Translations under genes and position numbers: made by a program
The notes under the pieces: generated by a model
Told to the model about the DNA's origin: nothing
Databases searched by the model: none
The model's input: the letters and a program-made list of their open reading frames with translations, nothing else
Assembly (NCBI GenBank): GCA_023485845.1
Contig: JAMCZE010000010.1
Coordinates: 20,160 to 84,159, forward strand
DNA from: Patescibacteria group bacterium
GTDB lineage: Bacteria; Patescibacteriota; Microgenomatia; JAMCZE01
Direction: 5' to 3'
Length of the DNA stretch: 64,000 bases
In this document: piece after piece, positions 3 to 60,436 of the stretch
Numbering within the stretch: position 1 is the first letter of the stretch
How the letters are laid out: every line of letters starts with the position of its first letter

Positions 3-155
3 CCCAATGTCTATAAAGCGGCTGGCATTGACCCAAGAGGGTGGACCGGGTTTGCTTTCGGCATGGGCCTTTCCCGCCTGGCCCTTCTTAAAAACCAAAT
101 TGATGACTTACGGGTTTTAACCAACTCGGATTTGAGAATTCTTAAACAGTTCTAA
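3..155 (+). CDS. pheS: phenylalanine--tRNA ligase alpha subunit, C-terminal fragment (5' partial)
   Basis: Frame-3 translation ...[43 protein letters not shown] matches the conserved PheS C-terminus; pheT follows immediately downstream. Confidence 0.7.
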
Positions 156-250
156 TTCAAAACTCAAAAATCAAAATGCAAAATTGCAATTCAAAATTAA
201 TAATTTTAACTTGGACTTTTAACTTTTAAATTTTGATTTTTAAATTACTA
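153..250. repeat. AT-rich degenerate heptamer array (TCAAAAN units) in the pheS-pheT spacer; bases 153-197 are an exact 45-bp duplicate of 459-503
   Basis: Read directly: taattcaaaactcaaaaatcaaaatgcaaaattgcaattcaaaat occurs at 153-197 and again inside pheT; 205-250 nearly matches 52690-52735. Confidence 0.8.
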
Positions 251-252
251 TC

Positions 253-2220
253 ATGTTAATTCCATTAAGCTGGTTAAAAGAATACGTTGACATCAAAATC
301 CCGTTTAAGGATTTAGCGGAACGGTTGTCGGAAGTTGGCCTGACGGTCGAAACCTGGCACGAGCAGGACGGAGATATTATTTTTGACCCTGAGGTCACCC
401 CGAACCGACCGGATTGGATGAGCGTTTATGGGATTGCCAGGGAAATAGCCGCGGTCACTAATTCAAAACTCAAAAATCAAAATGCAAAATTGCAATTCAA
501 AATAAATAAATCTTTAAAAATTGATATTAAACAAAACTATGACTTAATCTCCCGGATGACGTCGGTAATCATCAAAGACGTCAAGGTGAAACAATCACCA
601 GAATGGCTGCAGAAGCGGATAAAACAAATCGGGTTACGACCGATTAATAATTTGGTGGATATCACCAACTATGTGTTGTGGGTTTATGGCAGTCCGTTGC
701 ATGTTTTTGATTATGACAAAATCCGCGGCCACCAGCTGATTGTGGAAAAATCGGCCGGCGGCGAAGCTTTCCGCAGTCTGGACGGCATTGATTATCATCT
801 GCCCAATGGCGCCATCATTATTAAAGATCTCGGCCGAATTGTCGATTTGCCACCGATTAAAGGCGGGCAGAACACGGCTGTCTCGACGGAAACGAAAACC
901 GTGTTGTTACACTCGGTGGTTTGCAATCCAATTCTTTCCCGGCGGGCATCCCAAGCCCTGGGGGTGCGCAGTGACTCGTCAGCCGTTTCCGAACGGGGAG
1001 TGGATCCAAACGGGACAGTGGCCGCCGTTGATCTTGCCCTGTCCTTAGTCTTAGAACTAGCCGGCGGGCAAGTGGCCAGTGAAATTATGGATCACAAAAC
1101 GCAAGAGTTTGCCCCCTGGACCGTGGAAATGTCTCATGACCGGCTGGAGAAAATCTTAGGGATCAAAATTTCTTCGCGGGAAGTTAAGGACATTCTAACT
1201 CGGCTGGGCTTAGAAGTGGCGGGGGAATATAAGGTGACGGTGCCAACCTTTCGGGACGACCTCCACATTGAAGAAGATTTGATCGAAGAGGTGGGGCGGA
1301 TCCATGGTTATAACAATTTCCCCAAAACTCTGCCGGCCGGGCCGGTGTCCACCGCCCCGGTGGCCTACGCCCGCGACTTTGATTTAGAATTTCGCGTCAA
1401 GAGTCTGCTTAAAGGCGACGGCTACAGCGAAATTTACACTTATTCGCTGGTGGGGGAAAGACAACTGGTTGATCTTGGCATTGATCCGGGCAAAACCCTG
1501 CGCGTGGACAACCCCATCTCCCGCGATTTTGAATATCTGCGGCCGCGGATGATCGGCAATCTTCTGGAAGCGATGAAACTTAACCAAGCAAATTTTTCCG
1601 ACATCCGCCTTTATGAATTAGGTAAACACTACACCGGACCGACGATTGGCAAAGCCAAAGAAGAGTATTGGCTTAGCGGCGCCCAGACTGGAGAGAAATT
1701 TTATGAAGTGAAGGGAATAATCGAGACACTGCTAATCCAATTTGGCGTGCCTTACGAAATTAAACCGGACAACACTTCTGCCCAGGGCCACCCGGGGCGC
1801 AGCGCGGTGATTTCATCCGGGGATAAACTTTTGGGCTATCTGGGAGAAATGCACCCGGCGCTGCTCGCGCGGTTTGGAATTAAGGGCCATGTCAGCGGCT
1901 TTACAATTAATTACGATACATTCACATCTCTGGTTAATTTAAATAAAAAATACCGCCCTATTTCCAAGTTTCCGGCGGTGGTGCAGGATGTGTCGTTAAT
2001 TATTCCAGAAAAAGTCCTTTATGGCGACGTGCTGGAAGCAATTTGGTCAACTAGCAAATTAATTGCCGACGTCCAGTTACTCGATAAACATGAGCAAAGC
2101 ACCACGTTGCGAATCACGTTTCAGGACACGACAAAAAATCTGACTGACAGAGAAGTTAACGAGCTTCGGGCAAAAATTTTAAAGAAATTAGCGGAATTAG
2201 GAGTTAAGAACAAGGACTAG
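253..2220 (+). CDS. pheT: phenylalanine--tRNA ligase beta subunit
   Basis: 655-aa ORF; the N-terminus MLIPLSWLKEYVDI... and overall organization are typical of PheT; it directly follows pheS. Confidence 0.85.
   Translation: MLIPLSWLKEYVDIKIPFKDLAERLSEVGLTVETWHEQDGDIIFDPEVTPNRPDWMSVYGIAREIAAVTNSKLKNQNAKLQFKINKSLKIDIKQNYDLISRMTSVIIKDVKVKQSPEWLQKRIKQIGLRPINNLVDITNYVLWVYGSPLHVFDYDKIRGHQLIVEKSAGGEAFRSLDGIDYHLPNGAIIIKDLGRIVDLPPIKGGQNTAVSTETKTVLLHSVVCNPILSRRASQALGVRSDSSAVSERGVDPNGTVAAVDLALSLVLELAGGQVASEIMDHKTQEFAPWTVEMSHDRLEKILGIKISSREVKDILTRLGLEVAGEYKVTVPTFRDDLHIEEDLIEEVGRIHGYNNFPKTLPAGPVSTAPVAYARDFDLEFRVKSLLKGDGYSEIYTYSLVGERQLVDLGIDPGKTLRVDNPISRDFEYLRPRMIGNLLEAMKLNQANFSDIRLYELGKHYTGPTIGKAKEEYWLSGAQTGEKFYEVKGIIETLLIQFGVPYEIKPDNTSAQGHPGRSAVISSGDKLLGYLGEMHPALLARFGIKGHVSGFTINYDTFTSLVNLNKKYRPISKFPAVVQDVSLIIPEKVLYGDVLEAIWSTSKLIADVQLLDKHEQSTTLRITFQDTTKNLTDREVNELRAKILKKLAELGVKNKD
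459..503. repeat. 45-bp exact copy of the upstream intergenic repeat, inserted in-frame in pheT (encodes [15 protein letters not shown])
   Basis: Identical string to 153-197; the translation is low-complexity K/N/Q-rich. Confidence 0.8.
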
Positions 2221-4777
2221 CTGACCCAGAGGCGGCCGGGGAGTTCCAGTCGGCATTAACCCCAATGGTGATGTTTGTTTCTCCGGTATTGCCGGCCGAG
2301 TCAGTGCCTTTAACCTTGACTGTGTGGGAACTATTTGACAGACAAATCGTCTCATCAAGATTATCGGTGGACTTGCTCACTTTTTGGTTGCCGTCAATAA
2401 AAAGGGTCATGTTGACAATGTCATGAGTGGAAAAAGCCCGGGCTTTAAACTCCACATTGTTATTTGTTAGATTCTGGTGATCCTGCGGCGTGTCAATCAG
2501 GGTGCTCACGGAATCGCTGTTGGCGGTGGAGGTGTCCGTTGGTGGATGATAGCGGGAGTCACCGGCTTGGTTAGCAGCAATCCAATCATCAATGGCTTGC
2601 TGCCAACGGTTGGTTCCGGACGCACTCACCGGATCGTCTTCGGCAATAACAATGAACTCTTTGGAGTCATATTGGCCGGTTTTAACCTGTAAATCATTGG
2701 CCAGTTTCCCATCCGCCTTGGCGATTTTCAGGGTTTTATAGATCGGGCTGACGGCTGTCGGCTCTGTTCCCTTAATAAAATACTCTGCCCGGGTGGGATC
2801 GCTGCCATGGGGCAGGCCGCCGCCTAAAGCATCAACGGTGACCGCCACCACGTCATCCGGTTTTTGGAATGGTTGGTCGGGCTTGCCGGCCAGGGCGGCT
2901 TTCATTATTCGGTTCCAAATTGGAGACGCGCCGGTCACCCCGGAGGCAATTGCCTGGTTCATGACCGTGTTGTCGTTGTTGCCCACCCAAACACCAACCA
3001 CCAGCGAAGGGGTGTAGCCCACCGTCCAGTTGTCACGCTTCAAATCAGTGGTTCCTGTTTTCACCGCCACCGTGTGGCCGGGAATCTGGAGCAAATTAAC
3101 CGGCCCAAAAACCGTTTCCCGCGCGTTATTGTCCGACAGAATATGGGAAATTAAAAAACTTACGCCGGTGGAAAACACCCGCCGGCCAGTGACCTGGTGA
3201 TAGTCATAAAGCACATTGCCTTTACTATCCGTCACTTTGAGAATGGCTACGGGGTCATTCCTCACTCCGCCGGTGGCAAAAACGCCATAAGCGCTGGTCA
3301 GATCCAACAGGCGCACCTCACGGCCCCCCAAAGCCAGGGACAAGCCGACGTTGCTCATGTTGGCCGTTGTCGGCTCCCAAGTGGAAATGCCGGCATTGTA
3401 GCCATTAGTCATAATGTCCTTTAGCCCTGCCAGGGCGGTGAGCTTGACGGCAATGGTGTTAATGGAATTGCCAAGGGCAAAGCGTAGCTGCATCAGCCCG
3501 CGATATTTGCCGTCATAGTTTTCCGGGGTGTAAAGCGCGTTAGGATTAGCCGGGTCACCAGACGGGTAGGAAGTTTTGACGTCCATGAGCATCGTGGCTG
3601 GCGTATAGCCCTTAGTAAAGGCAGTGGCATAAATAAAGGGCTTGCCGGAAGAACCCGGCTGGCGCAGGGCGGTCGCGACATTATAGGAACCGTAGTCCTT
3701 GTCGAAATAATCATAGGACCCGTCCATCGCCAGAATTTCTCCGGTTTGGGGATTAATCGCCACCGCCGCTCCGTTGGTGGCATGGAGATATTTAATTTTG
3801 TTGACCTCCTGGTTAACAATTTGCTCCACTTGTTGCTCTAAATCCAGGTCCAAAGTGGTGGTCACCCGCAAACCGCCGGACTCTACCATCTGTTCCCCAA
3901 AGCGCGCCACCAGCTGGTCCCGGACATAAAAGACAAAATGGGGAGCGTTAATGGTGCCGGAAATCGTGGCAAATTTAACATTTGGCAGCTGCTTATCCGC
4001 ATCCGATTCCTGCTGGGCGGAAATGTAGCCGTCTTCGCGCATCCGGCGCAGCACGTCGCGGGTTCGGTCCACATAGGCCGTCGAGTGTTCACCAAGCGGC
4101 GAGTAGTAGCTGGGGGATTGCGGCAGACCGGCAAGAATTGCCGACTCCACCAGATCCAAATCCTTAGCATCTTTGCCGAAATAAGTTTTAGCTGCCGATT
4201 CAATGCCATAGGCCGAACCGCCATAGGGGATCTCGTTTAAATACATCTGCAGGATTTGGTCTTTAGAAAACTTTTTCTCGATTTCGTTGGCCAGAATAAT
4301 TTCTCTAACCTTGCGCAAAATTGTTTGTTCCGGAGACAAAAGAACATTTTTAACTAATTGCTGGGTGATAGTGGACCCGCCGGACAGACCTTGCAGGGTG
4401 ACAATGTCGAAAGCCGCCCGGGCGATGCCGGTGACGCTGAAGCCACCGTGCTGGTAAAAATTTTTGTCTTCAATAGAGACGGTGGCTTCCTGGACATATT
4501 TAGGAATGTCGGACAATTGCAATGGGATGCGGTTTTCGCCGTTATAAAGATCGTAAAGGACTTTGCCGTTGCGGTCGTAAATCACCGTGGAGAAGCCCTG
4601 CTGACGCACGATTTTGTTCGGGTCGGGCAATCCAAAGGAAAAAACGGTGAAGACCAGGGTGGTCACCAGGAACAAGCCAATGACCCCCAAGAAGGCTCCG
4701 ACCGAGGCCATTTTCAACAATTTCACCCGTCCCACGGGCGAATACCACATCCGTCTGTACCTTGCAAACATACGCAC
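2204..4777 (-). CDS. class A penicillin-binding protein (transglycosylase + transpeptidase), with a C-terminal extension
   Basis: 857 aa; N-terminal TM segment, GT51-like region (EDKNFYQHGGFS, TITQQLVKN), then a transpeptidase region; the C-terminal ~150 aa are Ser/Thr-rich and Ig-like. Confidence 0.85.
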   Translation of the reverse strand: MRMFARYRRMWYSPVGRVKLLKMASVGAFLGVIGLFLVTTLVFTVFSFGLPDPNKIVRQQGFSTVIYDRNGKVLYDLYNGENRIPLQLSDIPKYVQEATVSIEDKNFYQHGGFSVTGIARAAFDIVTLQGLSGGSTITQQLVKNVLLSPEQTILRKVREIILANEIEKKFSKDQILQMYLNEIPYGGSAYGIESAAKTYFGKDAKDLDLVESAILAGLPQSPSYYSPLGEHSTAYVDRTRDVLRRMREDGYISAQQESDADKQLPNVKFATISGTINAPHFVFYVRDQLVARFGEQMVESGGLRVTTTLDLDLEQQVEQIVNQEVNKIKYLHATNGAAVAINPQTGEILAMDGSYDYFDKDYGSYNVATALRQPGSSGKPFIYATAFTKGYTPATMLMDVKTSYPSGDPANPNALYTPENYDGKYRGLMQLRFALGNSINTIAVKLTALAGLKDIMTNGYNAGISTWEPTTANMSNVGLSLALGGREVRLLDLTSAYGVFATGGVRNDPVAILKVTDSKGNVLYDYHQVTGRRVFSTGVSFLISHILSDNNARETVFGPVNLLQIPGHTVAVKTGTTDLKRDNWTVGYTPSLVVGVWVGNNDNTVMNQAIASGVTGASPIWNRIMKAALAGKPDQPFQKPDDVVAVTVDALGGGLPHGSDPTRAEYFIKGTEPTAVSPIYKTLKIAKADGKLANDLQVKTGQYDSKEFIVIAEDDPVSASGTNRWQQAIDDWIAANQAGDSRYHPPTDTSTANSDSVSTLIDTPQDHQNLTNNNVEFKARAFSTHDIVNMTLFIDGNQKVSKSTDNLDETICLSNSSHTVKVKGTDSAGNTGETNITIGVNADWNSPAASGSASPCS

Positions 4778-5156: not shown

Positions 5157-5480
5157 ACAAGTTAATATTTAAAGGCTTTGATGGAGAAGCAGTAGAAACT
5201 TTAAGGTGACACCAGAGAAGAGGCGGTTGCTGCAAGACCTCTCGCACTTAAAGAATCGAATTACTCTCCGGAGCTGAAAGACTGAAATCACAGTAAGTTT
5301 TTCCGGGTAAGCCCGTGATAGCAGAAAAGCTGTGTCATTGAAAGATAGAGCAGTTTGAGGCTAATGGACGATCCCGCCTCAGCGGGATTTTTTAGTGCTT
5401 TAGTAAAGTAAGGTGGTACCGCGAGAAACCTCGCCCTTACCAATCGACCATGTTCATGGTTGGTGAGGGTGAGGTTTTTT
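5157..5480 (+). promoter_or_regulatory. T-box riboswitch leader (Tyr-specific inferred), with Stem III, antiterminator and intrinsic terminator
   Basis: T-box motif AAGGUGGUACCGCG at 5410-5423. Antiterminator: AAGG pairs with CCUU and GCGAG with CUCGC, flanking a UGGUACC bulge. A 13-bp terminator stem (5429-5441 with 5462-5474) is followed by T6 (5475-5480). Stem III hairpin cccgcctcagcggg at about 5372-5386. Candidate UAC specifier at 5262-5264. Confidence 0.7.
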
Positions 5481-5487
5481 GTGTTTT

Positions 5488-5574
5488 ACACGGGTGGCAG
5501 AGTGGTCAATTGCAACTCTCTGTAAAAGAGTCGCCCTAACAGGCTGCGAGGGTTCGAACCCCTCCCCGTGTACC
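5488..5574 (+). tRNA. tRNA-Tyr (anticodon GUA), long variable arm
   Basis: Hand-folded cloverleaf: 7-bp acceptor stem ACACGGG/CCCGTGT, D-arm with GG, anticodon stem ACTCT/AGAGT with loop CUGUAAA (GUA), a 16-nt variable arm, T-arm GAGGG-TTCGAAC-CCCTC, discriminator A, then CC (the terminal A of CCA is not encoded). Confidence 0.85.
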
Positions 5575-5587
5575 TATGAAGAAAGAT

Positions 5588-6505
5588 ATGGATACACTCA
5601 ATCATTCACAAACAATGAGCCACGAAGTGAAACGACTGTTTCCCGACACCAGGGAGCCAGAAAAGTTCGGTCAACTTTTTGGCATCACAGAACTGGGAAT
5701 GGGGCTAAGTTGCTCGCCGGAAACGATTAGGCGAGTCGGGTGGTGGTGGCTAGAGATAATGAAGTTAGGAATTAGCAATATGAAGACAAACGAAATAAAG
5801 CATGCCATTCGTAAAACCGCTTTGCTTGCCACCGAATCGGGCCAGTCCGTAGAATTTATTTCCACTCGCAGTCCCGATTTCATTCTTCATTTTACCGAGC
5901 ACCGTGAAGGACAACCAGAGCTTGGGCAGCGATCAATAGTGGCTCTCAATAAGCTTACCGAGATTAAACAAATATCAGAAAGATTTATACCAACCAAAGC
6001 AACGGTTTTTCTGGCCGATATTGCGCTGGCAAACGCTGATGATCCCCAGAACGGAATTCCAAGTAATTTCGCCGATGACTTATTAGATAGCAATTTGAAA
6101 GCGCTGCAATTGGCTTCTGCTAAAATTGACCCGTCGCTGGGCATCTCAAGACTGGGAGATATTGTCCACCCGTCCGGGAAGACCCGGAGAGACATTGTCG
6201 GGGTTGATGGGAATGGCAGTGCCTTCCGACAACTTACAGCCGATGCTTTTACGCATATTCGGGCGGTGGTCAAGGAAAGCTTGGAATTTCATCAAAAACT
6301 CGGTTGGTCTGAACGAGATGTTGAGGAACGAACAACGAAATTGGCAAAAGTTATGGCTACTGCTGGCCAAGCGTTTCATGCACAAAGGCCACGACCAATC
6401 ATGCTCTTTATGGAATCGTTTGTTAAAAGGGCTGCTTTTAATAACCTTCTAATTGACAGACGGGATCCACTTCCAATAATCTGCTTTAACGATCTGCGAC
6501 GATAG
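5588..6505 (+). CDS. hypothetical protein (no recognizable domain) located between tRNA-Tyr and tyrS
   Basis: 309-aa ORF in the tool frame; I chose the ATG at 5588, preceded by purine-rich GAAGAAAG, because the ATG at 5576 abuts the tRNA 3' end. Confidence 0.5.
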   Translation: MDTLNHSQTMSHEVKRLFPDTREPEKFGQLFGITELGMGLSCSPETIRRVGWWWLEIMKLGISNMKTNEIKHAIRKTALLATESGQSVEFISTRSPDFILHFTEHREGQPELGQRSIVALNKLTEIKQISERFIPTKATVFLADIALANADDPQNGIPSNFADDLLDSNLKALQLASAKIDPSLGISRLGDIVHPSGKTRRDIVGVDGNGSAFRQLTADAFTHIRAVVKESLEFHQKLGWSERDVEERTTKLAKVMATAGQAFHAQRPRPIMLFMESFVKRAAFNNLLIDRRDPLPIICFNDLRR

Positions 6506-6522
6506 CATATAATAGTGGTGTC

Positions 6523-7668
6523 ATGGATAAGATTGACGAATTGCTAGCCAGGGGGGTGGACAAAATTTATCCTTCAAAAGAGGCCCTGGAAAAGGTTCTG
6601 CGATCAGGGAAAAAACTTAGACTTTACCAAGGGTTTGATCCTACGGGGACCCAACTTCACATTGGTCATCTTGTTGGTTTCCGCAAATTACGACAATGGC
6701 AAGATCTTGGACACCATGTGATTTTTCTGATTGGTGACGGCACCGGCCAGGCCGGTGACCCTTCTGGCAAGAGAGGAGCCAGAGAAAAATTCATGGAGAG
6801 AGATGAATTACGGGCAAACGCCAAGGACTACCTTATGCAGGTTGCCAAGATCGTTAATTTCGAGGGATCTAATCCGGTGGAAATCTTATACAATAGCGAC
6901 TGGCTTAATGAGTTAAAATTGGTTGATATTCTTCACATCGCCCAGAATTTCTCCGTTCAACAATTGATCGAACGGGATATGTATCAGGAACGTCTCAAAA
7001 GGGGAGAGCAAATTAATTTACGGGAGTTCCTCTATCCGCTTCTTCAAGGCTATGACTCTGTCGCAATGGACGTTGACTTGGAGCAGGGGGGGACTGATCA
7101 AACCTTTAATATGTTGGCCGGGCGGACGCTGGTTAAAAATATGCTCGGAAAGGAAAAGTTTGTTATGACCACACCCTTGTTGACAGACGCTGAGGGAAAC
7201 AAAATTGGGAAAAGCGAAGGAAATGTTATTGGAGTAACTGACCCACCAAGCGAACTTTTTGCTAAAATTATGTCCCTAAAAGATAGTGCTATTATAAATT
7301 GCTTCACCTTAATTACTGCATTGCCTCTCAATAGTGTCGCGCAGAAAGAAAATCGGCTAAAAGATGGTGAGAACCCAATCAATCTTAAAAAAGAATTAGC
7401 CGCACAGATTGTTTCTGAAGTGCATTCGCCGGCGGCGGCGAAGAAGGCGCAGGAGGAATTTGAAAAGACGTTTCAGAAAAGGGAAGTGGCGGCGGATTTG
7501 ATTGAAGAGGTTTCGGCGGCGCCGGGAAAGATCACTGACCGGTTGGTGGAGGCGGGGATTGTGGCCAGCAAATCCGAGGCCAAACGGCTGGAAGACCAGG
7601 GGGCAATTGAAGAAATTGAACCAAATCTATATCGGATCGGAAAAAGGAAATTCATCAGATTCAAATGA
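6523..7668 (+). CDS. tyrS: tyrosine--tRNA ligase
   Basis: GFDPTGTQLHIGH (HIGH motif), KIGKS (KMSKS-type motif), C-terminal S4-like domain. Confidence 0.9.
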   Translation: MDKIDELLARGVDKIYPSKEALEKVLRSGKKLRLYQGFDPTGTQLHIGHLVGFRKLRQWQDLGHHVIFLIGDGTGQAGDPSGKRGAREKFMERDELRANAKDYLMQVAKIVNFEGSNPVEILYNSDWLNELKLVDILHIAQNFSVQQLIERDMYQERLKRGEQINLREFLYPLLQGYDSVAMDVDLEQGGTDQTFNMLAGRTLVKNMLGKEKFVMTTPLLTDAEGNKIGKSEGNVIGVTDPPSELFAKIMSLKDSAIINCFTLITALPLNSVAQKENRLKDGENPINLKKELAAQIVSEVHSPAAAKKAQEEFEKTFQKREVAADLIEEVSAAPGKITDRLVEAGIVASKSEAKRLEDQGAIEEIEPNLYRIGKRKFIRFK

Positions 7669-9846: not shown

Positions 9847-10013
9847 CACCGTTACCAAAGCGAAAGCTATCGACCAGGCGGCAAGGTGACCGGCGATCGC
9901 ATTTCCGGCTAAAGTTGCCCGGATTATCTTTGTGCTCTAATTGCCACAAGCCAATTATCTCGCACCGGGCCTGTCCGCACTGTGGTTTCTATCACGGGAG
10001 AAAAGTCCGATGA
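9843..10013 (+). CDS. rpmF: 50S ribosomal protein L32
   Basis: 56 aa, MTPLPKRKLSTRRQGDRRSHFRLKLPGLSLCSNCHKPIISHRACPHCGFYHGRKVR; the Zn-ribbon CxxC...CxxC is typical of L32. Missed by the ORF track (<60 aa). Confidence 0.8.
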   Translation: MTPLPKRKLSTRRQGDRRSHFRLKLPGLSLCSNCHKPIISHRACPHCGFYHGRKVR

Positions 10014-10594
10014 AAACACCGCTTGATCCCAGACACCTGCGCCGGCGAAAGCAAGTTCAGGAGTTATTCGCTTGGGAGGCGCAATCAAAAGTCAAAAATC
10101 AAAAGTCAAAAATCAAAAGTCACGACGACGGGGTTGAAAGAACCATAAATTCGTTAGAATTAATCGACAAAATAATCAGCGAGGCGGCGCCGGAGTGGGA
10201 GATTGCCAAAATTAACCAGATTGACTTGGCCATCCTGCGGCTGGCTGTTTTTGAACTGGTGGTGGAGGCAACCGAACCGCCAAAAGTGATTATTGATGAG
10301 GCCATTGAACTGGCCAAAGAATTTGGTAACGAAGCCTCGCCTAGCTTTATCAATGGAGCGCTGGCTAAAGTGCTGGTCAGTCGGCGCCGGGCGCTGGCCA
10401 TTATCGCCAACAAACTCGGGGTGGAGACGGCAAAGCTGACTCCGGAGGCAAATTTTAAACAAGACCTAAACATCACCGACCTGGAATTGGCGGATTTGAA
10501 AAGCACCTTAGAACGTCAATTCGCCGTCTCTTTTGAAAAGGCGCCGAAGATTCAAACCGTTAATGACCTTTTGGAAATTATTGAAGAAGAATGA
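10010..10594 (+). CDS. nusB: NusB antitermination factor fused to a C-terminal acyl-carrier-protein-like domain (degenerate; Ser replaced by Asp)
   Basis: N-terminal HLRRRKQVQELFAWEAQ... is NusB-like. The C-terminal ~65 aa, LGVETAKLTPEANFKQDLNITDLELADLKSTLERQF, align to the ACP helix II region (DLGADSLDTVEL) but show TDL instead of DSL. The ORF is continuous. ATGA start overlap with rpmF. Confidence 0.65.
   Translation: MKTPLDPRHLRRRKQVQELFAWEAQSKVKNQKSKIKSHDDGVERTINSLELIDKIISEAAPEWEIAKINQIDLAILRLAVFELVVEATEPPKVIIDEAIELAKEFGNEASPSFINGALAKVLVSRRRALAIIANKLGVETAKLTPEANFKQDLNITDLELADLKSTLERQFAVSFEKAPKIQTVNDLLEIIEEE
10085..10120. repeat. TCAAAAG/TCAAAAA heptamer x5, in-frame in nusB (encodes SKVKNQKSKIKS)
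   Basis: Read directly. Confidence 0.8.
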
Positions 10595-11238
10595 TTACGA
10601 TTCCATTTAAGGACCCGCGCCTTTTGGACCAAGCTCTGACCCACCGATCATTTTTAAATGAAGACTCCAAAACCACCGTTTCCAATGAACGGCTGGAATT
10701 TTTGGGCGACAGTGTTTTGTCCCTAATCGTCTCCACCGAACTATTTGCCCGCTTTCCCAACTATCCGGAGGGGAAACTAACTTCGCTGCGCTCCGCCTTG
10801 GTGCGAACAAAAACCCTGGCAAAGCTGGCCAAAGCCTTAAACTACGGCGATGCCCTGAAAATGAGCCGGGGAGAGGAGAAAACCGGCGGGCGGGAAAATG
10901 AATCGCTCTTGGCCGACACCTTTGAAGCAGTGTTGGGCGCCATTTATCTGGACCAGGGTCTGGAAGCCGCCCGGAAGTTTTTGCAAACCCATCTCTTCCC
11001 TTTAATTGACGGGCAAACCATTTTTGACTATAAAAGCAAGCTGCAGGAAGTCACCCAACAACAGAAAAAAGTCTCCCCGATTTATAGAGTGCTGTCGGAA
11101 ACCGGCCCGGACCACGATAAGGTTTTTGTCGTGGGTGTTTATCTTTCTAGCAAGCTTTTGGCCCAAGGATCGGGCAAAAGCAAACAGGAGGCCCAACAGG
11201 AAGCCGCCCATCTTGCGCTGGAAGGACAAAAAGGATAA
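10591..11238 (+). CDS. rnc: ribonuclease III
   Basis: ERLEFLGDSVL signature and a C-terminal dsRBD. Confidence 0.9.
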   Translation: MITIPFKDPRLLDQALTHRSFLNEDSKTTVSNERLEFLGDSVLSLIVSTELFARFPNYPEGKLTSLRSALVRTKTLAKLAKALNYGDALKMSRGEEKTGGRENESLLADTFEAVLGAIYLDQGLEAARKFLQTHLFPLIDGQTIFDYKSKLQEVTQQQKKVSPIYRVLSETGPDHDKVFVVGVYLSSKLLAQGSGKSKQEAQQEAAHLALEGQKG

Positions 11239-11247: not shown

Positions 11248-11481
11248 ATGGCGGTGAAATTAAGACTCACCAGAATCGGAAAAACCGGCAACGCCCAATA
11301 CCGGCTGATTGCGATTGATGAACACAAGCGGCGCGGCGGCCGGGCCATTGAAGTGCTTGGCTCTTACAACCCCCATCAGAAAGTTAAAAGTCAAAAGTTA
11401 AAAGTCAAAAGTGAAAGAATTAAATATTGGTTGTCGGTCGGGGCAAAACCTACCGAAACCGTTGCCCAGCTTCTCAAATGA
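11248..11481 (+). CDS. rpsP: 30S ribosomal protein S16
   Basis: MAVKLRLTRIGKTGNAQYRLIAIDEHKRRGGRAIEVLGSYNP; carries a heptamer-repeat insertion. Confidence 0.85.
   Translation: MAVKLRLTRIGKTGNAQYRLIAIDEHKRRGGRAIEVLGSYNPHQKVKSQKLKVKSERIKYWLSVGAKPTETVAQLLK
11384..11418. repeat. TTAAAAG/TCAAAAG heptamer array, in-frame in rpsP (QKVKSQKLKVKSE)
   Basis: Read directly. Confidence 0.8.
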
Positions 11482-23506: not shown

Positions 23507-23578
23507 AAAAAACAATTTAAAATTTACAATTTGAAATTTGAACTAAAACTTTTCAATTTGAAATATTTAATTTTCAAT
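23507..23578. repeat. ATTTGAA-type heptamer array, the left arm of a hairpin element flanking the four-helix-bundle ORF
   Basis: aaatttacaatttgaaatttgaactaaaa here is the inverse complement of a segment in 23943-23992. Confidence 0.7.
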
Positions 23579-23942
23579 CAGATTTTGTTGAATAAGCAAT
23601 TTTCCCAAATATCAGCACGAATTCCTGGGCCTCCTGATAAAGCTGTCGACACTCACCTTTAAGCTTCTCGTCATCGAGCGAGCCGCCAATCAACCTCAAC
23701 CAGTATACCGTTTCTTTTGCCTCTTTCTTACTAATAAAAATTTTATTTTGAAAATCCTTTTTACTTGAGGCTCCGTTTGCCTCCCGATAGTTGGCCCCGA
23801 TACTCGTTCCCGATCTGACCGCCTGATCAACTAATGGAATAGTTATCGAATTTTTAAGAATTCTCTTCAAAAACTCAATTAATTTCTCCGAAAATCTCGC
23901 GGTTCTTTCTTCCAAGTCGTAATTGTTTGATGATTGAGCCAT
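23574..23942 (-). CDS. four-helix-bundle protein (the family found inside 23S rRNA intervening sequences)
   Basis: 122 aa; ...VRSGTSIGANYREA... and ...KEAKETVYWLRL... are hallmarks of this family. Confidence 0.7.
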   Translation of the reverse strand: MAQSSNNYDLEERTARFSEKLIEFLKRILKNSITIPLVDQAVRSGTSIGANYREANGASSKKDFQNKIFISKKEAKETVYWLRLIGGSLDDEKLKGECRQLYQEAQEFVLIFGKIAYSTKSD

Positions 23943-37560: not shown

Positions 37561-38130
37561 ATGACAAATTTTCAAAAAGGACTTATTTTCGGAACAGTGA
37601 TACTCCTCGTCCTGGCCGCTGCCAGCGGGGGATGGTTGTTAACACGAAACCGGGTGGCTGGCCCAATTCAAAAACCAATGGTTCCAATCACCGTCACCGC
37701 CTGGAAAACCTATTTTAATAGAGATTTCAGTTTTCAATATCCCGCCGACTGGCAAATTGCCACCAGTGAAGCCAAAATTTCAGCTGATTCTGCACCTATG
37801 AAGATTGAGACTGTCTCCAATGCCGTTTTGTCAGGAAACACTCCACCGGAGGGGGAAACTGTCACTATTCAGCAAATTTCCCTCACTGATGTACAGTTTC
37901 CACCGACGATGTTTAATCAGGCTGCTAAAATTAAACTAGGGGGACAGGAGATTCAAACCTACGCCACCAAGAATAACGGTGCCTCCACCAACTATCTCCG
38001 GTTTATCTATAAAGGCACCAGCAAAAACAACTATCTGTTTTCATTTGACTATTATAATGGCCAGCACCCTAACCGGGATTATCCCAAATTGTCTGATCAG
38101 ATTATTAAATCTTTTGTCGCCAGGCCATGA
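37561..38130 (+). CDS. membrane-anchored hypothetical protein
   Basis: MTNFQKGLIFGTVILLVLAAASGGW signal anchor; ATG at 37561, immediately after the upstream stop. Confidence 0.5.
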   Translation: MTNFQKGLIFGTVILLVLAAASGGWLLTRNRVAGPIQKPMVPITVTAWKTYFNRDFSFQYPADWQIATSEAKISADSAPMKIETVSNAVLSGNTPPEGETVTIQQISLTDVQFPPTMFNQAAKIKLGGQEIQTYATKNNGASTNYLRFIYKGTSKNNYLFSFDYYNGQHPNRDYPKLSDQIIKSFVARP

Positions 38131-41100: not shown

Positions 41101-42008
41101 GACAGCATAGTTATTCACTCATTGTCCCCGGCAACACCACCTATACCCTTTCGGCCCCAAGCGGCTACACCCCGGTTAACCCCCAAGTGGCTGTGGCGTG
41201 CGACAATGTCACCGGCCCGACTTTTTGGAACTCGATTGGTGATGCTGGCGTGGTTGGCTCTTCGGGAACGATTAATTATGGCAGCGGCGGTATCTCTCAA
41301 GCCGGTTCTCAAATCCCTGGCTATAATCTGCAAAACTATAATAACCAAGCGCCCACCGATCAAATCACTTATAATGCTCTCCTTGGTAGCGTTTTAACCA
41401 ATGCGGCGGTGGCCCTAAGTGATCTGAACAGCGCCTGCACCGCCAATCCCAGCACCGGAACCGTCGTGGGCCACGGCATTGACTTTTATTGTTACGGTTC
41501 AAACTTGGACAGCCTGTTAACCTCGGTTCTGGGCGGCAGCGACAACAATAAAATCATCTTTTACCCCTCACCGGGCTATGGCGACGGACCGCAAACAATC
41601 GGCACCCACAGTGCCAACGGGAAAGATGCCATTGTCTTTGTCAACGGTAACTTAACGGTGGCCGGAAATATCATCGTGGATCATGCCAGCCAAACTGCCG
41701 GCATCGTGTTTATCCTTCAAGATAATCCTATCAGCAACCTGTCGATTAACTCCACAGTGACAAACCTATCGGGTATCTATATTTTTAAAGGAAGTTTTAA
41801 TGACAATGCCGACAACGGCAGTGTCACCAGCCAACTGTCCGGTTACGGCTCACTGATTAACACCGGTTCTGTCACACTCACTCCCGGGCGCGCCCCCACG
41901 GGAGGGGCTGCCGGCTGGAGTTGGACCTATGAACCGAAATATCTCACCTTATTCAGGAACGTGTTGACCGTTACCCAATACACTTGGACCGAGTTGCCGC
42001 CGCAATGA
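38127..42008 (+). CDS. giant (1293 aa) secreted surface protein with at least three LamG-like domains
   Basis: Signal peptide; motifs SYWKMxE...GxARNFNGSTD...SxDEAAVWNRALSxSEIQALYNG recur three times; internal 47-bp near-identical DNA repeat (39274-39320 and 39874-39920). Confidence 0.75.
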   Translation: MRNKLIKSVIFSATLIGLLTVIRPQPVRAACPAGNLACGKTVYTASQWHWPQYLNDGDYTTIEGTTTSNGLIQIALGANYPINKIHMLPNVTSIGAHGSGGVDYHMEVWVTPNSIDCGFYWSNAWTTIIDITANPLVANQWYDINVPNVSGSCITIQFLDTYGMGQQWYEVEAYCAGTTAITGSVSGVSNPVAVCTAGGVCQNTQSSYSLSVSNPSSNFVYAPSLMNYSLGPPPTNVTAGQCVASVAGPNFTYSASGACSPPTALSNWWKMEDSGSTITDAIGGANGTVSTAPVCGFPASNPGSSGLVSYWKMDETSGPMVPDALNINNGTTSSSISCTFPNNNPSSSGLISYWKMNEASGQTASDSAGINNGTATGTTITTGKPGLGNARNFNGSTDYVAVTNESNFDFEYTQSFSLSVWVKYNGSGVYRNIFSKALSTSPYTGYTLRIDQDNGFGLVLIRQDSNYIWAHSTSSFNDGNWHFITATYNGNGQAGGVNLYLDGQPKTVLNYSAGTIGSILNNVNLTIGGAGAGAPAFSGSIDEAAVWNRALSTSEIQALYNGTGGGAGETPSCNAIYPAVIAGKPGLGNARNFNGSTDSIRATDSSLPTGNNPMSLTTWFKTSTSLSPNSYAIAASYGTASSAQSIYFGLGNDASTGPNHLYVGPYGNAVGTTTSPNDGQWHFGVATFDGTTWRLYLDGQLNNSKAMSDNIIKNGTLYIGSSNIGYPWNGSLDEVSVWNKALSLSEVQALYNGPETYSCASPSSSSTNGRIGQARNFSSGAYVGIPNTASINVGNIKTVGAWVKTNPIAGNQIVFSTWDNSNGYLLYINSAGKAVVSNGTATAVSSATAADGSWHYVAGVWDGTNGKIYVDSNAAVSTAMTINSSTGTNQIGTSFSGAIDEVRLYNRALSATDLAAEAGPGVVPSPVSSSCGTCGGGTSCGAGSQTCYDAYCQSFSQSCIIGGGGLTISGSIMNAPAAITINTNPGNYSATGQHSYSLIVPGNTTYTLSAPSGYTPVNPQVAVACDNVTGPTFWNSIGDAGVVGSSGTINYGSGGISQAGSQIPGYNLQNYNNQAPTDQITYNALLGSVLTNAAVALSDLNSACTANPSTGTVVGHGIDFYCYGSNLDSLLTSVLGGSDNNKIIFYPSPGYGDGPQTIGTHSANGKDAIVFVNGNLTVAGNIIVDHASQTAGIVFILQDNPISNLSINSTVTNLSGIYIFKGSFNDNADNGSVTSQLSGYGSLINTGSVTLTPGRAPTGGAAGWSWTYEPKYLTLFRNVLTVTQYTWTELPPQ

Positions 42009-42583
42009 GTTATCTTAATAGTATTTTGATTGTTGGACAAATAAAAGATCTTTTCCCCGATAATCCTAACAAAATTATTATTGAACCGGAGGCAGTGACA
42101 ATTGGCATCGAGCAGATCCGGCAGCTGAAGAAAGCATTAATTATCAGGCCAACCAACAATCAACCGTTGGTCGCCATTATCTCTCAGGCAGAAAAACTAA
42201 CCGAGGAAGCGCAAAATGCCCTGCTCAAAACCCTAGAAGAACCACCGGAAAATGTGTTCATTGTGCTGTGCACTCCCGACGAAGACCTGCTTCTTCCCAC
42301 TGTCGTTTCTCGTTGTCAAGTGATTTCCAACTTAAGTAACCTAAGTGGCTTAGGTAACTTAAGTGACTTAAAAAAAGTTCTCCTCTGGATGGAGCAGGGG
42401 AGCATTAAAGAAGGTTTTGCCTGGGCCGCCGGCAAAGATCGTCAGGAAGGGCTAAAAATAATTGACCAGTTATTGACGCTCAAACCTTATCGACAGGCGA
42501 GAAAACTATTGGCCGCCAAAAAACAACTTTTGGCCAACACCAATGTCCGTTTGGCCCTGGAAAATCTCTTCTTAAATTGCTAA
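42005..42583 (+). CDS. holB: DNA polymerase III delta-prime-like subunit (short form, no P-loop)
   Basis: LLKTLEEPPENVFIVLCT...SRCQ motif; carries a 9-bp tandem repeat. Confidence 0.6.
   Translation: MSYLNSILIVGQIKDLFPDNPNKIIIEPEAVTIGIEQIRQLKKALIIRPTNNQPLVAIISQAEKLTEEAQNALLKTLEEPPENVFIVLCTPDEDLLLPTVVSRCQVISNLSNLSGLGNLSDLKKVLLWMEQGSIKEGFAWAAGKDRQEGLKIIDQLLTLKPYRQARKLLAAKKQLLANTNVRLALENLFLNC
42330..42368. repeat. 9-bp tandem repeat cttaagt(a/g)ac x4, in-frame in holB (SNLSNLSGLGNLSDL)
   Basis: Read directly. Confidence 0.75.
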
Positions 42584-42588: not shown

Positions 42589-46526
<3,938 letters not shown>

Positions 46527-51854: not shown

Positions 51855-52667
51855 CTACACCCCCCATTGGGTCGTTATTAAAGTTAGAAGAAATAAAATT
51901 ATGGCGACAATAATAAATTCGTTGGCGATTCGCTGGTTCAATTTCTCACCAATTTCAAACTGGATGATGCCCACCAGCTCGTAGAAGATGCCGGTGAGAA
52001 AAAGCGCAAAGATAGAGACGGTGACCGGCCAAAAAGACAAAATCCAGGCGATTTCTCCCAAAATCACGGCGGCGGCCAGCGAGTAGTTTCGCACTTGCCC
52101 ACTGATCCTCTCCTCTAGGTTGACACTCCAAATTGCCTGAAAGGACAACGGCAAAGAGATAATAAAAACTAAAAGAAAATTGTAAAAACTTGGCAGGTGC
52201 AAAGAGGAAACGACAATAAACAGCAGCAGCCCGGCGGCCACCGTGACAAGGAAACCAATGGAATGAGCCACCCGCAGCAGTTGGATGGTGCGAATTGCCG
52301 CGATGTTATAGATGTTGGCTGTCAGCAGCGCCGCGTAATACCCCACCACAAATACCCCCAAAAAAGCCAGCCGCAGGGCCATGGCCAACAACTGGCCGGA
52401 ATCGCCGCTGCCGATAATTGTCGGCAAGAGCGGCAACACCAAAAGTGACCCCAGGGAAAACATCGCCGGCAAAATCGGCAGGGTCAACCATTCAATCCCG
52501 TTAAAGTCCTGATCGTGCAGGGCAAGGATGCTGGCCACCAGTGAAGCTGCGGCAAAGATCACCACCCGGAAGCGCCACTGAAGAAAACTGCCCAACCCCG
52601 CCCGGGAAACAATAATTCCCGCAAGAAGAACCAAGGTGGCGATGACAAACTTCTGACGCTTGGACAT
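51855..52667 (-). CDS. polytopic membrane protein, hypothetical
   Basis: 270 aa with about 8 TM helices. Confidence 0.5.
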   Translation of the reverse strand: MSKRQKFVIATLVLLAGIIVSRAGLGSFLQWRFRVVIFAAASLVASILALHDQDFNGIEWLTLPILPAMFSLGSLLVLPLLPTIIGSGDSGQLLAMALRLAFLGVFVVGYYAALLTANIYNIAAIRTIQLLRVAHSIGFLVTVAAGLLLFIVVSSLHLPSFYNFLLVFIISLPLSFQAIWSVNLEERISGQVRNYSLAAAVILGEIAWILSFWPVTVSIFALFLTGIFYELVGIIQFEIGEKLNQRIANEFIIVAIILFLLTLITTQWGV

Positions 52668-52735
52668 CTAATTTAAAATTAAAAATTTAAACTTGGACTT
52701 TTAACTTTTAAATTTTGACTTTTGAATTAGTCTTG
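52668..52735. repeat. AT-rich heptamer array; bases 52690-52735 nearly match 205-250; it also supplies the last codons of ruvC
   Basis: acttggacttttaacttttaaattttga(t/c)ttt is shared with the pheS-pheT spacer. Confidence 0.75.
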
Positions 52736-53211
52736 ATATAGTGTGTGATGGCGATGGCTAGGCCGTCAGCGGCATCATCGGGTTTGATGATTTTTTTCAT
52801 CCCAAGATATTTTCGCACACTTTCCTGAATTTCTTTTTTCTTGGCCCGGCCAAAACCGGTGAGAGCAAATTTCACCGACAGGCCCTGGTATTCAAAGACG
52901 GGCACATGGTAGCGGGCCGACTCTGCCAACACCACTCCCCTCGCCTGGCCAACGGCAATGGCCGTCTTGGCGTTGATGCCAAAAAAAAGCCGCTCAATAG
53001 CTAAAACATCGGGCTTACGTTTGGCTAAAATCTTGCCGATTTCCGTTTGCAGGTATAAAAGCCGCTCGGGCATCGCTGTTTCTAAAACCGTTTCCAGACA
53101 CCCGGCGTCAACAAATTTGACATTATTCTTGACTTTTGACTTTTGACTTTTGACTTCGATTAAGCCGTAGCCTAATCGAGCCGTTCCCGGATCAATGCCT
53201 AAAATTAACAT
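52708..53211 (-). CDS. ruvC: Holliday junction resolvase RuvC
   Basis: MLILGIDPGTARLGYG N-terminus; carries a heptamer insertion encoding KSQKSKVKNNVK. Confidence 0.85.
   Translation of the reverse strand: MLILGIDPGTARLGYGLIEVKSQKSKVKNNVKFVDAGCLETVLETAMPERLLYLQTEIGKILAKRKPDVLAIERLFFGINAKTAIAVGQARGVVLAESARYHVPVFEYQGLSVKFALTGFGRAKKKEIQESVRKYLGMKKIIKPDDAADGLAIAITHYIKTNSKVKI
53128..53158. repeat. GACTTTT (inverse complement of AAAAGTC) heptamer x4, in-frame in ruvC
   Basis: Read directly. Confidence 0.8.
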
Positions 53212-53459: not shown

Positions 53460-53460
53460 A

Positions 53461-59691: not shown

Positions 59692-59694
59692 TGA

Positions 59695-60357
59695 TTATTG
59701 TAGCCCATCCAGAACTTTTCGCAAATCGACCGGAAGAGGGCTGTCGAATTTTAGGATTTCGCCGGTTTGGGGGTGAGCAATTTCCAGATGGGTGGCATGG
59801 AGAAAGAGGCGCGGGCAAAACCTTTTGTCCGCCTGAAGGTTTTTCCGGCCGCCGTAGATGGGGTCAGCCACAATGGGATAACCGAGATATTTCAGGTGGA
59901 CTCTAATTTGATGCGTCCGACCCGTGTGGGGGATTAATTCCAACAATGAAAAATTTGAAATTTGAAATTTGAAATTTGAAATTGTTTTGTAATCCGTCGT
60001 GGCTTCACGGCCACCGGGAAACACCCCAAAATGCATTCGGTTAAACGGGCTTCGGGCAATCGGGGCATTGATGCTTCCCTGCTGTGGGCTGACTTTTCCA
60101 TGAACCAGCGCCAGATATTTCTTGACAGTCGTCCGGCTTTTAAACTGGGCCTGGAGATTTTCCAGCGCCACCGGAGTCTTAGCGATAATTAATAGGCCCG
60201 AGGTGTCTTTATCCAGCCGGTGAACAATAAACTTGCCGGCGGCCCAATCTTCCATGGTTTCCGTCCCCGCCGCCGTCTCCGACTTGTTGACCACCAACCC
60301 CGAGGGCTTATCAACAACCAACAAATAGTCATCCTCAAAAATTACCTTGATATCCAT
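59695..60357 (-). CDS. RluA-family pseudouridine synthase
   Basis: HRLDKDTSGLLIIAKT catalytic Asp motif; carries an ATTTGAA repeat insertion. Confidence 0.8.
   Translation of the reverse strand: MDIKVIFEDDYLLVVDKPSGLVVNKSETAAGTETMEDWAAGKFIVHRLDKDTSGLLIIAKTPVALENLQAQFKSRTTVKKYLALVHGKVSPQQGSINAPIARSPFNRMHFGVFPGGREATTDYKTISNFKFQISNFSLLELIPHTGRTHQIRVHLKYLGYPIVADPIYGGRKNLQADKRFCPRLFLHATHLEIAHPQTGEILKFDSPLPVDLRKVLDGLQ
59950..59984. repeat. ATTTGAA heptamer x5, in-frame in the rluA-like gene
   Basis: Read directly. Confidence 0.8.
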
Positions 60358-60436
60358 AATTAATTTGAAATTTACAATTTAAAATTTGAATTGATTGAAA
60401 CATTTAGTTCAAATTTCGAATTTCAAATTGAAAATT
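60358..60436. repeat. palindromic heptamer element (ATTTGAA arm + TTCAAAT arm), a cargo-less counterpart of the element at 23507-23992
   Basis: aatttgaaatttacaatttaaaatttgaa...ttagttcaaatttcgaatttcaaattgaaaatt. Confidence 0.65.

Follow-up and report, generated by a model that had tools for sequence, protein, structure and literature searches.

Heptamer arrays in a Patescibacteria genome as probable arms of palindromic spacer elements, with related arrays inside housekeeping genes

Short tandem arrays of a seven-nucleotide unit recur along a 64,000-nucleotide (nt) stretch of DNA from a Patescibacteria group bacterium (assembly GCA_023485845.1, contig JAMCZE010000010.1, positions 20,160 to 84,159 of the forward strand; hereafter the window), both in the spacers between genes and, in frame, inside housekeeping genes. 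These arrays are real and lineage-wide. The explanation that we favor, with moderate confidence, is that the arrays in the spacers are the arms of two families of palindromic elements, and that the arrays in genes are old loop segments or arrays that exchange sequence with those elements.

Arrays were called with Tandem Repeats Finder and with our own scans, among them a scan for at least three units of the degenerate heptamer TCAAAWN. Both approaches recover a heptamer array at every site named in an initial reading made from the letters of the window (the sequence-only reading), namely period-7 arrays in spacers at 154–243, 23512–23564, 23941–23989, 52670–52728 and 60362–60436, and in genes in pheT (460–503), nusB (10083–10122), rpsP (11380–11424), ruvC (53129–53156) and an rluA-like gene (59951–59983). 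The units of TCAAAAG and ATTTGAA type are a single motif, TCAAAWN, seen on opposite strands. The window has 10 TCAAAWN arrays, whereas 50 dinucleotide shuffles gave 0.36 on average and never more than 2, and its strong autocorrelation runs at periods of 4–12 number four at period 7, one at period 9 and none at the other periods, compared with zero in 30 dinucleotide shuffles. The arrays are islands of 12–15% G+C in a window of about 49% G+C, and half of the array loci fall in its non-coding share, yet this share is only about 6%. As the sequence-only reading expected of a genome-wide family, they are not restricted to the window: a sister assembly has another array 1.7 kb upstream of it, and 80 related Microgenomates loci contain 58 arrays where shuffles yield 7.75 (loci from relatives have L-numbers below, e.g., L124, L126, L129, L130). 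When these loci and the window are taken together, 30 of 68 arrays have a partner on the opposite strand within 150 nt. The window proteins that we checked (RuvC, PheT, S16, RluA and others) are identical in two NCBI metagenome-assembled genomes (MAGs) labelled Patescibacteria group bacterium, one of which is the sister assembly GCA_023378825.1, and some are also found in the Logan assemblies of SRR10278331 and SRR10267473; the next-closest relatives are Microgenomates (Gottesmanbacteria and similar), with at most 83% identity for RuvC and at most 67% for PheT.

The sequence-only reading had treated the spacer arrays as a plain expanding simple-sequence family, a view that comparison does not support, as they are terminal inverted repeats with non-periodic signatures conserved across genomes and contexts. 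It had missed their inverted pairing, the fact that two of them flank a gene of 122 amino acids (aa), and the non-periodic identities between distant sites. We refer to the elements of the type that flanks this gene as family 1, and its representatives in the window are as follows:

23512–23573, reverse strand: downstream terminal inverted repeat of the family-1 cassette, with the core CAAATTGTAAATTT(C/T)AAATT that also stands at the 3' end of cassettes in L211, L212, L215, L217 and L219
23574–23942, reverse strand: four-helix-bundle gene of 122 aa (PF05635; 23S rRNA intervening-sequence protein, S23p or Avd-like; Pfam E = 2.5e-14), the cargo of family 1
23943–23989, reverse strand: terminal inverted repeat on the upstream side of the family-1 cassette, reading AATTTGAAATTTGAAATTTACAATTTGAA on the strand of the gene, with end sequences conserved among cassettes
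60358–60436, strandless: gene-less miniature of family 1 in the spacer that precedes rluA, with the same arm cores as the cassette (fold of −19.1 kcal/mol, z = −3.5)

The family-1 arm is AATTTGAAATTTACAATTTGAA together with its inverse, and the arms enclose a four-helix-bundle gene of 121–122 aa, which in the window lies inside a type IV pilus cluster, between the genes for a pilB-like and a pilT-like ATPase. The arms at 23514–23547 and 23956–23989 are inverted and 85% complementary, and the minimum-free-energy fold of 23500–24000 pairs 23943–23989 with 23512–23560 around the open reading frame (ORF); the corresponding folds of four cassettes all have both ends paired around the ORF. We compared seven ORF-bearing cassettes, the one in the window and six from five other genomic places (L217 has two), and found them at six gene junctions: pilB–pilT in the window, LamG–GalT in L211, LamG–M23 peptidase in L215 (so that LamG genes border the cassettes in two other genomes), and three junctions of a PrgI/TraC/VirB4 conjugation-like cluster spread over L212, L217 and L219. 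All seven have the upstream end AATTTGAAATTTACAATTTGAAAT..CAATTTGAAA..ATG and the downstream end ..TTCAAATTGTAAATTTCAAATT, and these conserved ends include the non-periodic signature ACAATTT / GTAAATT. Gene-less copies with both ends are found in the window (60358–60436), in L211 (the rplJ–rplL spacer), at two places in L212 and at one in L217, and the middle of the L212 and L217 copies resembles a precise loss of the ORF. A single junction can be occupied in either way: between PrgI and TraC, L217 and L219 have a cassette with the ORF, and L212 has a miniature copy. Element copies begin right after a stop codon and end a few bases 5' of the next start codon; where the window has its miniature element, L124 has a 1-nt overlap between rluA and the gene before it.

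Close homologs of the four-helix-bundle protein number in the thousands (annotated as four helix bundle protein, at 65–83% identity) and are more conserved than the housekeeping proteins of the same genomes. Many of them lie on contigs of about 0.6–1.5 kb, as would be expected if repeats flank the gene. In the sister assembly the gene (protein P0245, on a 15,409-nt contig of GCA_023378825.1) is annotated as partial, with 115 of 122 aa, which is consistent with a contig end inside the cassette and with arms that break short-read assemblies. A viral origin of the arms was considered and rejected, the 22-nt arm core having no exact match in a viral contig collection.

The second family, of which only gene-less hairpins and no ORF-bearing version were seen among the elements compared, has two members in the window:

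152–250, strandless: family-2 palindromic element filling the pheS–pheT spacer, with left arm 152–203 (TCAAAWN) and right arm 204–246 (the inverse); fold of −10.5 kcal/mol, z = −2.2
52664–52740, strandless: family-2 palindromic element between ruvC and a DUF5656 gene, with termini CTAATT...AATTAG; fold z = −2.6

Family-2 arms start with CTAATTCAAAA / (C/G)TAATT(C/T)AAAA and continue with five or six TNAAAWN units, and the element at 52664–52740 overlaps the final codons and the stop codon of ruvC. In other Microgenomates (L166, L175, L189, L159), homologous arms make up hairpins that lie between nusB and rnc. At the junctions that are filled in the window the relatives are compact, with 2 nt between pheS and pheT in L130, and 25 nt (L124) or 16 nt (L126) between ruvC and the DUF5656 gene. 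Across both families the spacer arrays of the window form inverted pairs, and in three cases the local hairpin is more stable than in shuffles (z of −2.2 to −3.5); the arms of about 12 elements are too conserved to offer compensatory changes.

Exact matches also connect sites that are far apart. Positions 152–197 equal 458–503 over 46 nt, positions 208–236 equal 52690–52718 over 29 nt, and the 19-nt sequence AAATTGTAAATTTCAAATT is common to 23964–23982 and 60362–60380 in inverse orientation. Because these identities span irregular units, independent slippage cannot produce them.

One of these matches reaches into a gene. Five gene-internal arrays are built from the same motif:

458–509, forward strand: heptamer array in pheT, about residues 68–86, in the linker before the B3/4 domain (458–503 identical to 152–197)
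10083–10122, forward strand: heptamer array in nusB, perfect at period 14 over 40 nt, about residues 25–38 counted from the ATG at 10010 (Tandem Repeats Finder)
11380–11424, forward strand: heptamer array in rpsP, the S16 ORF 11248–11481, residues 45–59 (Tandem Repeats Finder)
53129–53156, reverse strand: perfect (AAGTCAA)×4 array in ruvC, residues about 19–28, at the tip of the beta1–beta2 hairpin (Tandem Repeats Finder)
59951–59985, reverse strand: perfect (TCAAATT)×4.7 array in the rluA-like gene, residues 125–136, in a beta-hairpin (Tandem Repeats Finder)

On the sense strand all five are TCAAAWN arrays. Their complement (e.g., CTTTTGA, AATTTGA) has TGA (or TAA) in all three frames within three units, since 7 and 3 are coprime and a stop codon therefore reaches every frame in that distance. 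Having a single stop-free orientation is enough to account for the orientation of the arrays and for their K/S/Q/N or I/S/N/F/K/Q composition without selection on the peptide, so that the K/S/Q/N-rich segments would be a by-product of a DNA motif that is read in its one open orientation. Three of the five (pheT, ruvC and rluA) lie 306–440 nt from a spacer element of the same type, for which our own rough estimate gives a chance of about 4e-4, and this proximity, together with the 46-nt identity, suggests local copying between elements and genes.

Two of the distances deserve to be recorded in their own right. The rluA-internal array (59952–59985) lies 424–438 nt from the far arm of the miniature element (60410–60429), and the ruvC-internal array (53131–53153) lies about 435 nt from the spacer arm at 52696–52718; these values equal the end-to-end spacing of the ORF-bearing cassettes (424–436 nt; here 23514–23533 vs. 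23963–23982). The shared spacing of 424–438 nt may be a coincidence or may be meaningful. An alternative long-range stem could form in the rluA mRNA between the internal array and the upstream arm.

The sequence-only reading had described the gene-internal arrays as insertions in protein loops, and each half of that description holds in part. The loop placement is borne out for the hairpin tip of RuvC, the loop of S16, the beta-hairpin of RluA, the inter-domain linker of PheT and the variable region of NusB, and fails for a 9-nt repeat in hppA that forms part of a transmembrane helix. As to insertion, the segments in RuvC, RluA, NusB and S16 are 4–8 aa longer than in the nearest relatives, while those in PheT and HppA show no change in length. 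Insertion is not established by a tandem array as such, and for pheT and hppA the comparison with relatives refutes it.

For PheT the case is decided by orthologs that share the residues. The array segment aligns without gaps to 45 relatives in which the length of the linker is invariant and the pattern K-L-K...K-[LI]-x-[FI]-K is common to all, and by alignment the linker in the Staphylococcus structure (PDB chain 2rhq_B) is of comparable length. TCAAAAN arrays stand at the same codons in L129 (67% identity) and L130 (56%), the latter as a perfect (TCAAAAT)×4, so that the orthologous arrays differ between lineages in unit and perfection. The pheT array is thus old and length-neutral, which overturns the earlier view of it as a new insertion. 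At the same time it matches exactly, over 46 nt, the spacer arm 306 nt upstream, and the near-identical repeat pair of 46–52 nt differs at one position only. The array in the window has the arm signature ATGCAAAATTGCAAT, which is missing from the orthologous arrays of L129 and L130 and is present in arms of other genomes. This distribution suggests short-patch conversion, and the likeliest event would be conversion of a pre-existing pheT array by the arm 306 nt upstream. The PheT gene itself (253–2220) encodes only 655 aa, and its alignment to solved chains skips from query residue 41 to chain residue 157; the roughly 115 residues missing after the N-terminal domain, which we take to be the B2 domain, are absent in a short form that is common to all relatives found.

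The other four arrays are found in segments whose length does vary. The RuvC loop is 6–7 aa longer (+6 relative to E. coli RuvC) and is hypervariable, ranging from 0 to +24 aa across 55 relatives; the array is present in L126 (73% identity) and absent from L124 (80%), three assemblies have it in identical form, and a structure model has a coil at residues 21–30 between strands at 12–20 and 31–40, with a predicted confidence (pLDDT) of about 65. The location of the rpsP array inside S16 stands as described by the sequence-only reading, the gene being 11248–11481 and the mechanical ORF at 11427 being a KH-domain gene downstream of it. The S16 loop is longer by 2 aa than in Mycobacterium S16 and by 4 aa than in most Microgenomates, and is equal to that of L130, whose rpsP loop DNA is a decayed period-7 tract; relatives encode HQKEFKVKKD at the array site, with proto-units already within it. 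The hairpin of the RluA-like protein is 4 aa longer than in PDB homologs and 5 aa longer than in L124. The NusB segment falls in a variable part of the protein that precedes the conserved core, within a reduced N-terminal half, and is 6–8 aa longer than in the nearest relatives with a reduced NusB (L130, L131, L133). Since no element lies near nusB or rpsP and only periodic units are shared with the arms, independent slippage is possible in these two genes.

Some relatives have arrays of their own at other sites. In the rluA ortholog of L124 a heptamer array occupies another site, and a 9-mer array lies close to the array site of the window (3181–3212 and 3493–3530 of that locus, (AATTTAA)×4.6 and (GGATCTTAA)×4), and L167 and L169 have (TCATAAA)×6–7 at about 6500–6570, at the contig end. 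Such arrays point to lineage-specific turnover of the tracts. It was also seen that the C-terminal 65 aa or so of NusB (10010–10594) form a domain with similarity to acyl carrier proteins (PP-binding; E as low as 1e-9 against PDB), and that its N-terminal half is reduced relative to solved NusB structures.

Taken as a mechanism, the reading of spacer arrays as element arms would run as follows. In family 1 the arms would enclose the PF05635 gene, and miniature copies would retain both ends without it. Once transcribed, the arms would pair into a long A-U-rich stem that, by analogy with intervening sequences, may be cut by RNase III, and such cutting would make insertion within operons or rRNA tolerable. 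The candidate enzyme is encoded nearby:

10591–11238, forward strand: rnc (RNase III) gene, with the putative role of stem cleavage (Pfam Ribonuclease_3 and dsrm on the identical gene in L128)

The copies in genes would be single arms or arrays in their sole stop-free orientation, confined to loops and linkers that tolerate changes in length. Some of them would be old and orthologous (pheT in three lineages, ruvC in two), would turn over in place by slippage or homogenization, as the (TCAAAAT)×4 at the pheT site of L130 may illustrate, and would swap sequence with nearby spacer elements by short-patch copying, for which the 46-nt match of pheT is the clearest case.

Several observations weigh against this account. 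Our data on the genome itself cover the 64 kb window and 1.8 kb more. The pattern TCAAAWN×4 is also found in cyanobacteria, Bacteroidota and other phyla, with a PF05635 gene near it in 3 of 120 loci, so that the motif as such is not specific to the elements; an association of TCAAAWN with PF05635 outside Microgenomates was accordingly rejected (within 300 nt in just one of the 120 pattern-matched loci), and the link with PF05635 is specific to the arm type rather than to the motif. The spacer arrays 23505–23580 and 23940–23995, taken singly, fold no better than shuffles and pair only with each other across the gene. The arrays in nusB, rpsP and ruvC share only periodic units with the arms and no non-periodic signature, so that independent slippage would suffice for them, and the direction of copying between pheT and its spacer is argued from a single signature. 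No target-site duplication, transposase or recombinase was identified (Pfam on the scanned window ORFs), the first of these because the relatives are too diverged for an alignment of empty sites, and mobility would be deduced from nothing beyond the same ends in different contexts and filled vs. empty junctions in distant relatives. Finally, transcription across the elements and cleavage by RNase III are both inferred.

The strongest competing explanation is that the arrays are pure simple-sequence repeats, heptanucleotide tracts that arise and expand in place by slippage and are tolerated in frame in loops, with no elements and no copying. Period 7 is favored here as it is reported to be in many bacteria, heptanucleotide repeats being the commonest long class of simple-sequence repeat in many of them (Mrazek 2007, as summarized in PMC4679880); the unit differs between lineages at the orthologous pheT site ((TCAAAAT)×4 in L130 vs. 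the window), murF has an unrelated heptamer repeat, and the TCAAAWN motif forms arrays in many phyla. Slippage does not explain, however, why sites 52 kb apart, and genomes in which the gene contexts differ, have conserved non-periodic signatures in common, why the spacer arrays are obligatorily inverted pairs (with the 30 of 68 opposite-strand partners noted above), why the cassettes have an ORF as common cargo, or why arm cores with ACAATTT/GTAAATT recur at gene junctions and flank PF05635 genes in our sample. In nusB the period of 14 over 40 nt implies steps that are not a multiple of three, which are hard to take without frameshifted intermediates. The slipped-strand length variation that the sequence-only reading proposed was likewise not found: no array differs in length among the 2–4 same-species assemblies that cover it, a small sample made up of two NCBI MAGs at all compared loci and two Logan contigs over the ruvC region, and the 90%-identity clusters of PheT, S16, RuvC, RluA, HppA and the four-helix-bundle protein each consist of a single sequence, which limits the comparison to those assemblies. 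We therefore regard slippage as the whole explanation to be unlikely.

A second possibility, which seems to us quite improbable, is that the arrays are cis-regulatory sites between cistrons, acting as terminators or attenuators, promoters or translational operators, and that the copies in genes are incidental. Their exact placement between stop and start codons and their hairpin potential fit such a role, TTGAC-type −35 boxes recur in the complement, and the heptamer repeats of Beggiatoaceae (TAACTGA) just 5' of start codons offer a precedent. Yet the stems lack a G+C-rich core or a regular T-tract, and consensus scans gave no enrichment of intrinsic terminators at the arrays and a single weak resemblance to a promoter, within the pheS–pheT element. 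A search of the window with Rfam at gathering thresholds matched only a T-box and tRNA, with no match at the arrays and no rRNA. The flanked genes are unrelated (pheT, pilT, DUF5656, rluA, rplL, traC-like), relatives have no spacer at the same junctions, and the existence of copies with and without an ORF is left unexplained.

The resemblance of PF05635 to the accessory protein Avd, and the presence of two nearly identical repeats, 306 nt apart and one of them inside a gene, recall a diversity-generating retroelement in which the spacer copy would be the template, the pheT copy the variable repeat and the four-helix-bundle gene the Avd-like partner. Diversity-generating retroelements are common in candidate-phyla bacteria. 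We rejected this possibility, which is remote, as Pfam scans of 40 ORFs gave no reverse-transcriptase domain, the PF05635 gene and pheT are 23 kb apart, the one difference within the repeat pair does not fit an adenine-specific pattern, the target would be the linker of an essential tRNA synthetase and not a ligand-binding fold, and the cassette recurs in other loci without a reverse transcriptase nearby. An assembly artefact, in which AT-rich low-complexity tracts or mis-joined read pairs made the arrays, was also rejected and has a negligible chance of being correct: small gene-breaking, chimera-like inverted copies from 400–545 nt away do occur in GCA_023378825.1, and the array pairs of pheT and its spacer, ruvC and rluA are 306–440 nt apart, but two NCBI assemblies agree exactly in the affected proteins (with S16 and RuvC also in Logan assemblies), two independent Logan contigs match the ruvC region at 99.98–100%, every affected ORF is intact, orthologous arrays are found in unrelated samples and studies, and the same element ends recur in many public assemblies.

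The account of spacer arrays as element arms gains from comparison with the S23p intervening sequences of 23S rRNA genes (Leptospira, Coxiella burnetii, Brucella, Xanthomonas). Like these, family 1 has a PF05635 ORF of about 120 aa in a loop, terminal inverted repeats of about 25–45 nt that form a stem, an overall length of about 430–480 nt, and tandem heptamers between stem and start codon. In Coxiella the intervening sequence has an S23p ORF, a 28-bp inverted-repeat stem that RNase III cleaves and, 5' of the ORF, tandem heptamers in a number that depends on the strain (PMC4990558), and the rRNA insertions of candidate-phyla bacteria also contain 23S_rRNA_IVP ORFs (PMC11270868). Unlike them, family 1 lies in the spacers of protein operons (type IV pilus, type IV secretion system-like, LamG, rplJ–rplL) and not in helix 25 or 45 of 23S rRNA, its arms are themselves heptamer arrays of a different unit, and miniature ORF-less copies coexist with full ones. 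RNase III processing has been shown for the Coxiella intervening sequence; for family 1 it would follow by analogy, and an rnc gene is present in the window.

The arrays also share features with known heptanucleotide repeats (short tandemly repeated repetitive sequences (STRR) of cyanobacteria, GGGAATC of Xanthomonas, TAACTGA of Beggiatoaceae), in that the units are arranged head to tail in 3–7 copies and in strong excess over chance, are mostly intergenic, often adjoin start codons, sometimes form inverted pairs, and have a scattered phylogenetic distribution that includes Cyanobacteria and Bacteroidota. They differ in their unit, TCAAAWN, and in having conserved non-periodic signatures and fixed ends as the arms of defined elements; and whereas TAACTGA repeats within ORFs lie mostly at protein ends, several arrays here are in frame in housekeeping genes, at orthologous positions in diverged lineages. 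Miniature inverted-repeat transposable elements (MITEs) and palindromic intergenic repeats such as the repetitive extragenic palindromic and bacterial interspersed mosaic elements (REP/BIME), the enterobacterial repetitive intergenic consensus (ERIC) and Correia elements are likewise short, AT-rich, multi-copy and intergenic with terminal inverted repeats, and the miniature family-1 copies resemble internal deletions of the longer ORF-bearing copy with which they share both ends, as in MITEs. Here, in contrast, the long copy encodes a four-helix-bundle protein and not a transposase, no target-site duplication was identified, and the arms are internally periodic at 7 nt.

Two further systems bear on the arrays inside genes. 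The palindromic elements of Rickettsia, which Ogata and colleagues reportedly described in 2000 as whole palindromes of 100–150 bp inserted as a unit and in frame in genes, are similar by description in placing a repeat-derived in-frame segment in essential or housekeeping genes, where it is translated as an extra surface segment and function is kept; the copies considered here are only single arms or arrays of 28–45 nt, open in one orientation, and several of them replace residues. As in the contingency loci of pathogens, the unit inside the ORF has a length not divisible by three, and a slip by one unit therefore shifts the frame, but the genes here are housekeeping genes (S16, PheT, RuvC, NusB, RluA) and not surface or virulence genes, and no length variants were seen; a frameshift in them would be deleterious and not adaptive.

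Over-representation of heptanucleotides (STRR, GGGAATC, TAACTGA) and S23p intervening sequences with heptamers are already published. The literature that we searched contains no description of S23p cassettes with heptamer-array terminal repeats between protein genes, of miniature derivatives of such cassettes, or of orthologously conserved heptamer arrays in essential genes of candidate-phyla bacteria. We know of no function for PF05635 (S23p) genes outside the Avd role in diversity-generating retroelements. If a defined cassette with heptamer-array ends and miniature copies is indeed what spreads here, it would provide a handle on the spread of PF05635 and on the ligand of its protein, would account for candidate-phyla assemblies that break at PF05635 genes, and would offer a mechanism for the low-complexity, lysine-rich loops and tails often seen in candidate-phyla proteins. 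More tentatively, we can imagine that elements similar to intervening sequences left the rRNA genes and colonized the cistron junctions of Microgenomates, that their arms are processed as double-stranded RNA, that full and miniature copies interchange at a given junction, that single arms are copied across a few hundred bases into neighboring genes and translated there, in their one stop-free orientation, as K/S/Q-rich loops of essential proteins such as S16 and PheT, and that the bundle protein could recognize the 7-nt-periodic arms; we consider this larger scenario possible but doubtful. For annotation, spacer arrays of this type would be better treated as element arms than as plain microsatellites, and a heptamer tract in an essential gene need not mean a recent insertion.

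Three more repeats in genes were thought by the sequence-only reading to behave in the same way:

26591–26621, reverse strand: unrelated heptamer repeat (GCTCATT units) in a murF-like ligase gene (Tandem Repeats Finder)
42329–42371, forward strand: unrelated repeat of a 9-mer (NLS-type) in holB, where the AAA+ domain ends (2 aa longer, net, than in PDB chain 2gno_A)
44695–44724, forward strand: unrelated perfect 9-mer ×3.3 in hppA, part of a transmembrane helix, with no change in length

These arrays are real, but their units differ and they share no sequence with the heptamer family, from which we exclude them. The murF repeat is part of a segment that is specific to the lineage and exceeds its counterpart in PDB MurF by about 24 aa, and those of hppA and holB are ordinary in-frame repeats.

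The sister assembly GCA_023378825.1 shows no mismatch to the window in 13.6 kb and differs by indels only, placed at window positions 44141, 44657, 46555, 48128, 53703 and 56664. Two of these indels are inverted copies from 400 and 545 nt away with microhomology of 7–9 nt at their bounds, and they coincide with the absence of gyrA and hppA from the gene calls of that assembly. They look like read-pair chimeras, the alternative being real template-switch variants.

Other parts of the window are of interest apart from the arrays. At 5169–5574 a T-box leader (Rfam, 108.7 bits) is followed 46 nt on by a tRNA-Tyr(GTA) gene, and 3' of the latter come two ORFs (5576–6505 and 6523–7668), the first without a Pfam match and the second a class-I tRNA synthetase gene (tRNA-synt_1b); a T-box directly upstream of a tRNA gene is an unusual arrangement. 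A HEPN gene (33421–33819) overlaps a nucleotidyltransferase gene (33812–34120) by 8 nt, in the layout of a HEPN/MNT toxin-antitoxin pair, within a region of low G+C (about 40%) at 28–34 kb that also contains glycosyltransferase genes. An ORF of 413 aa (28273–29514) joins a poly(A) polymerase / CCA-adding head domain (residues 35–170) to a nucleoside diphosphate kinase domain (274–404). Two LamG/concanavalin-like proteins of 705 and 1293 aa (35442–37559 and 38127–42008) have internal DNA repeats, the direct-repeat families D6 and D8, with up to 92% identity.

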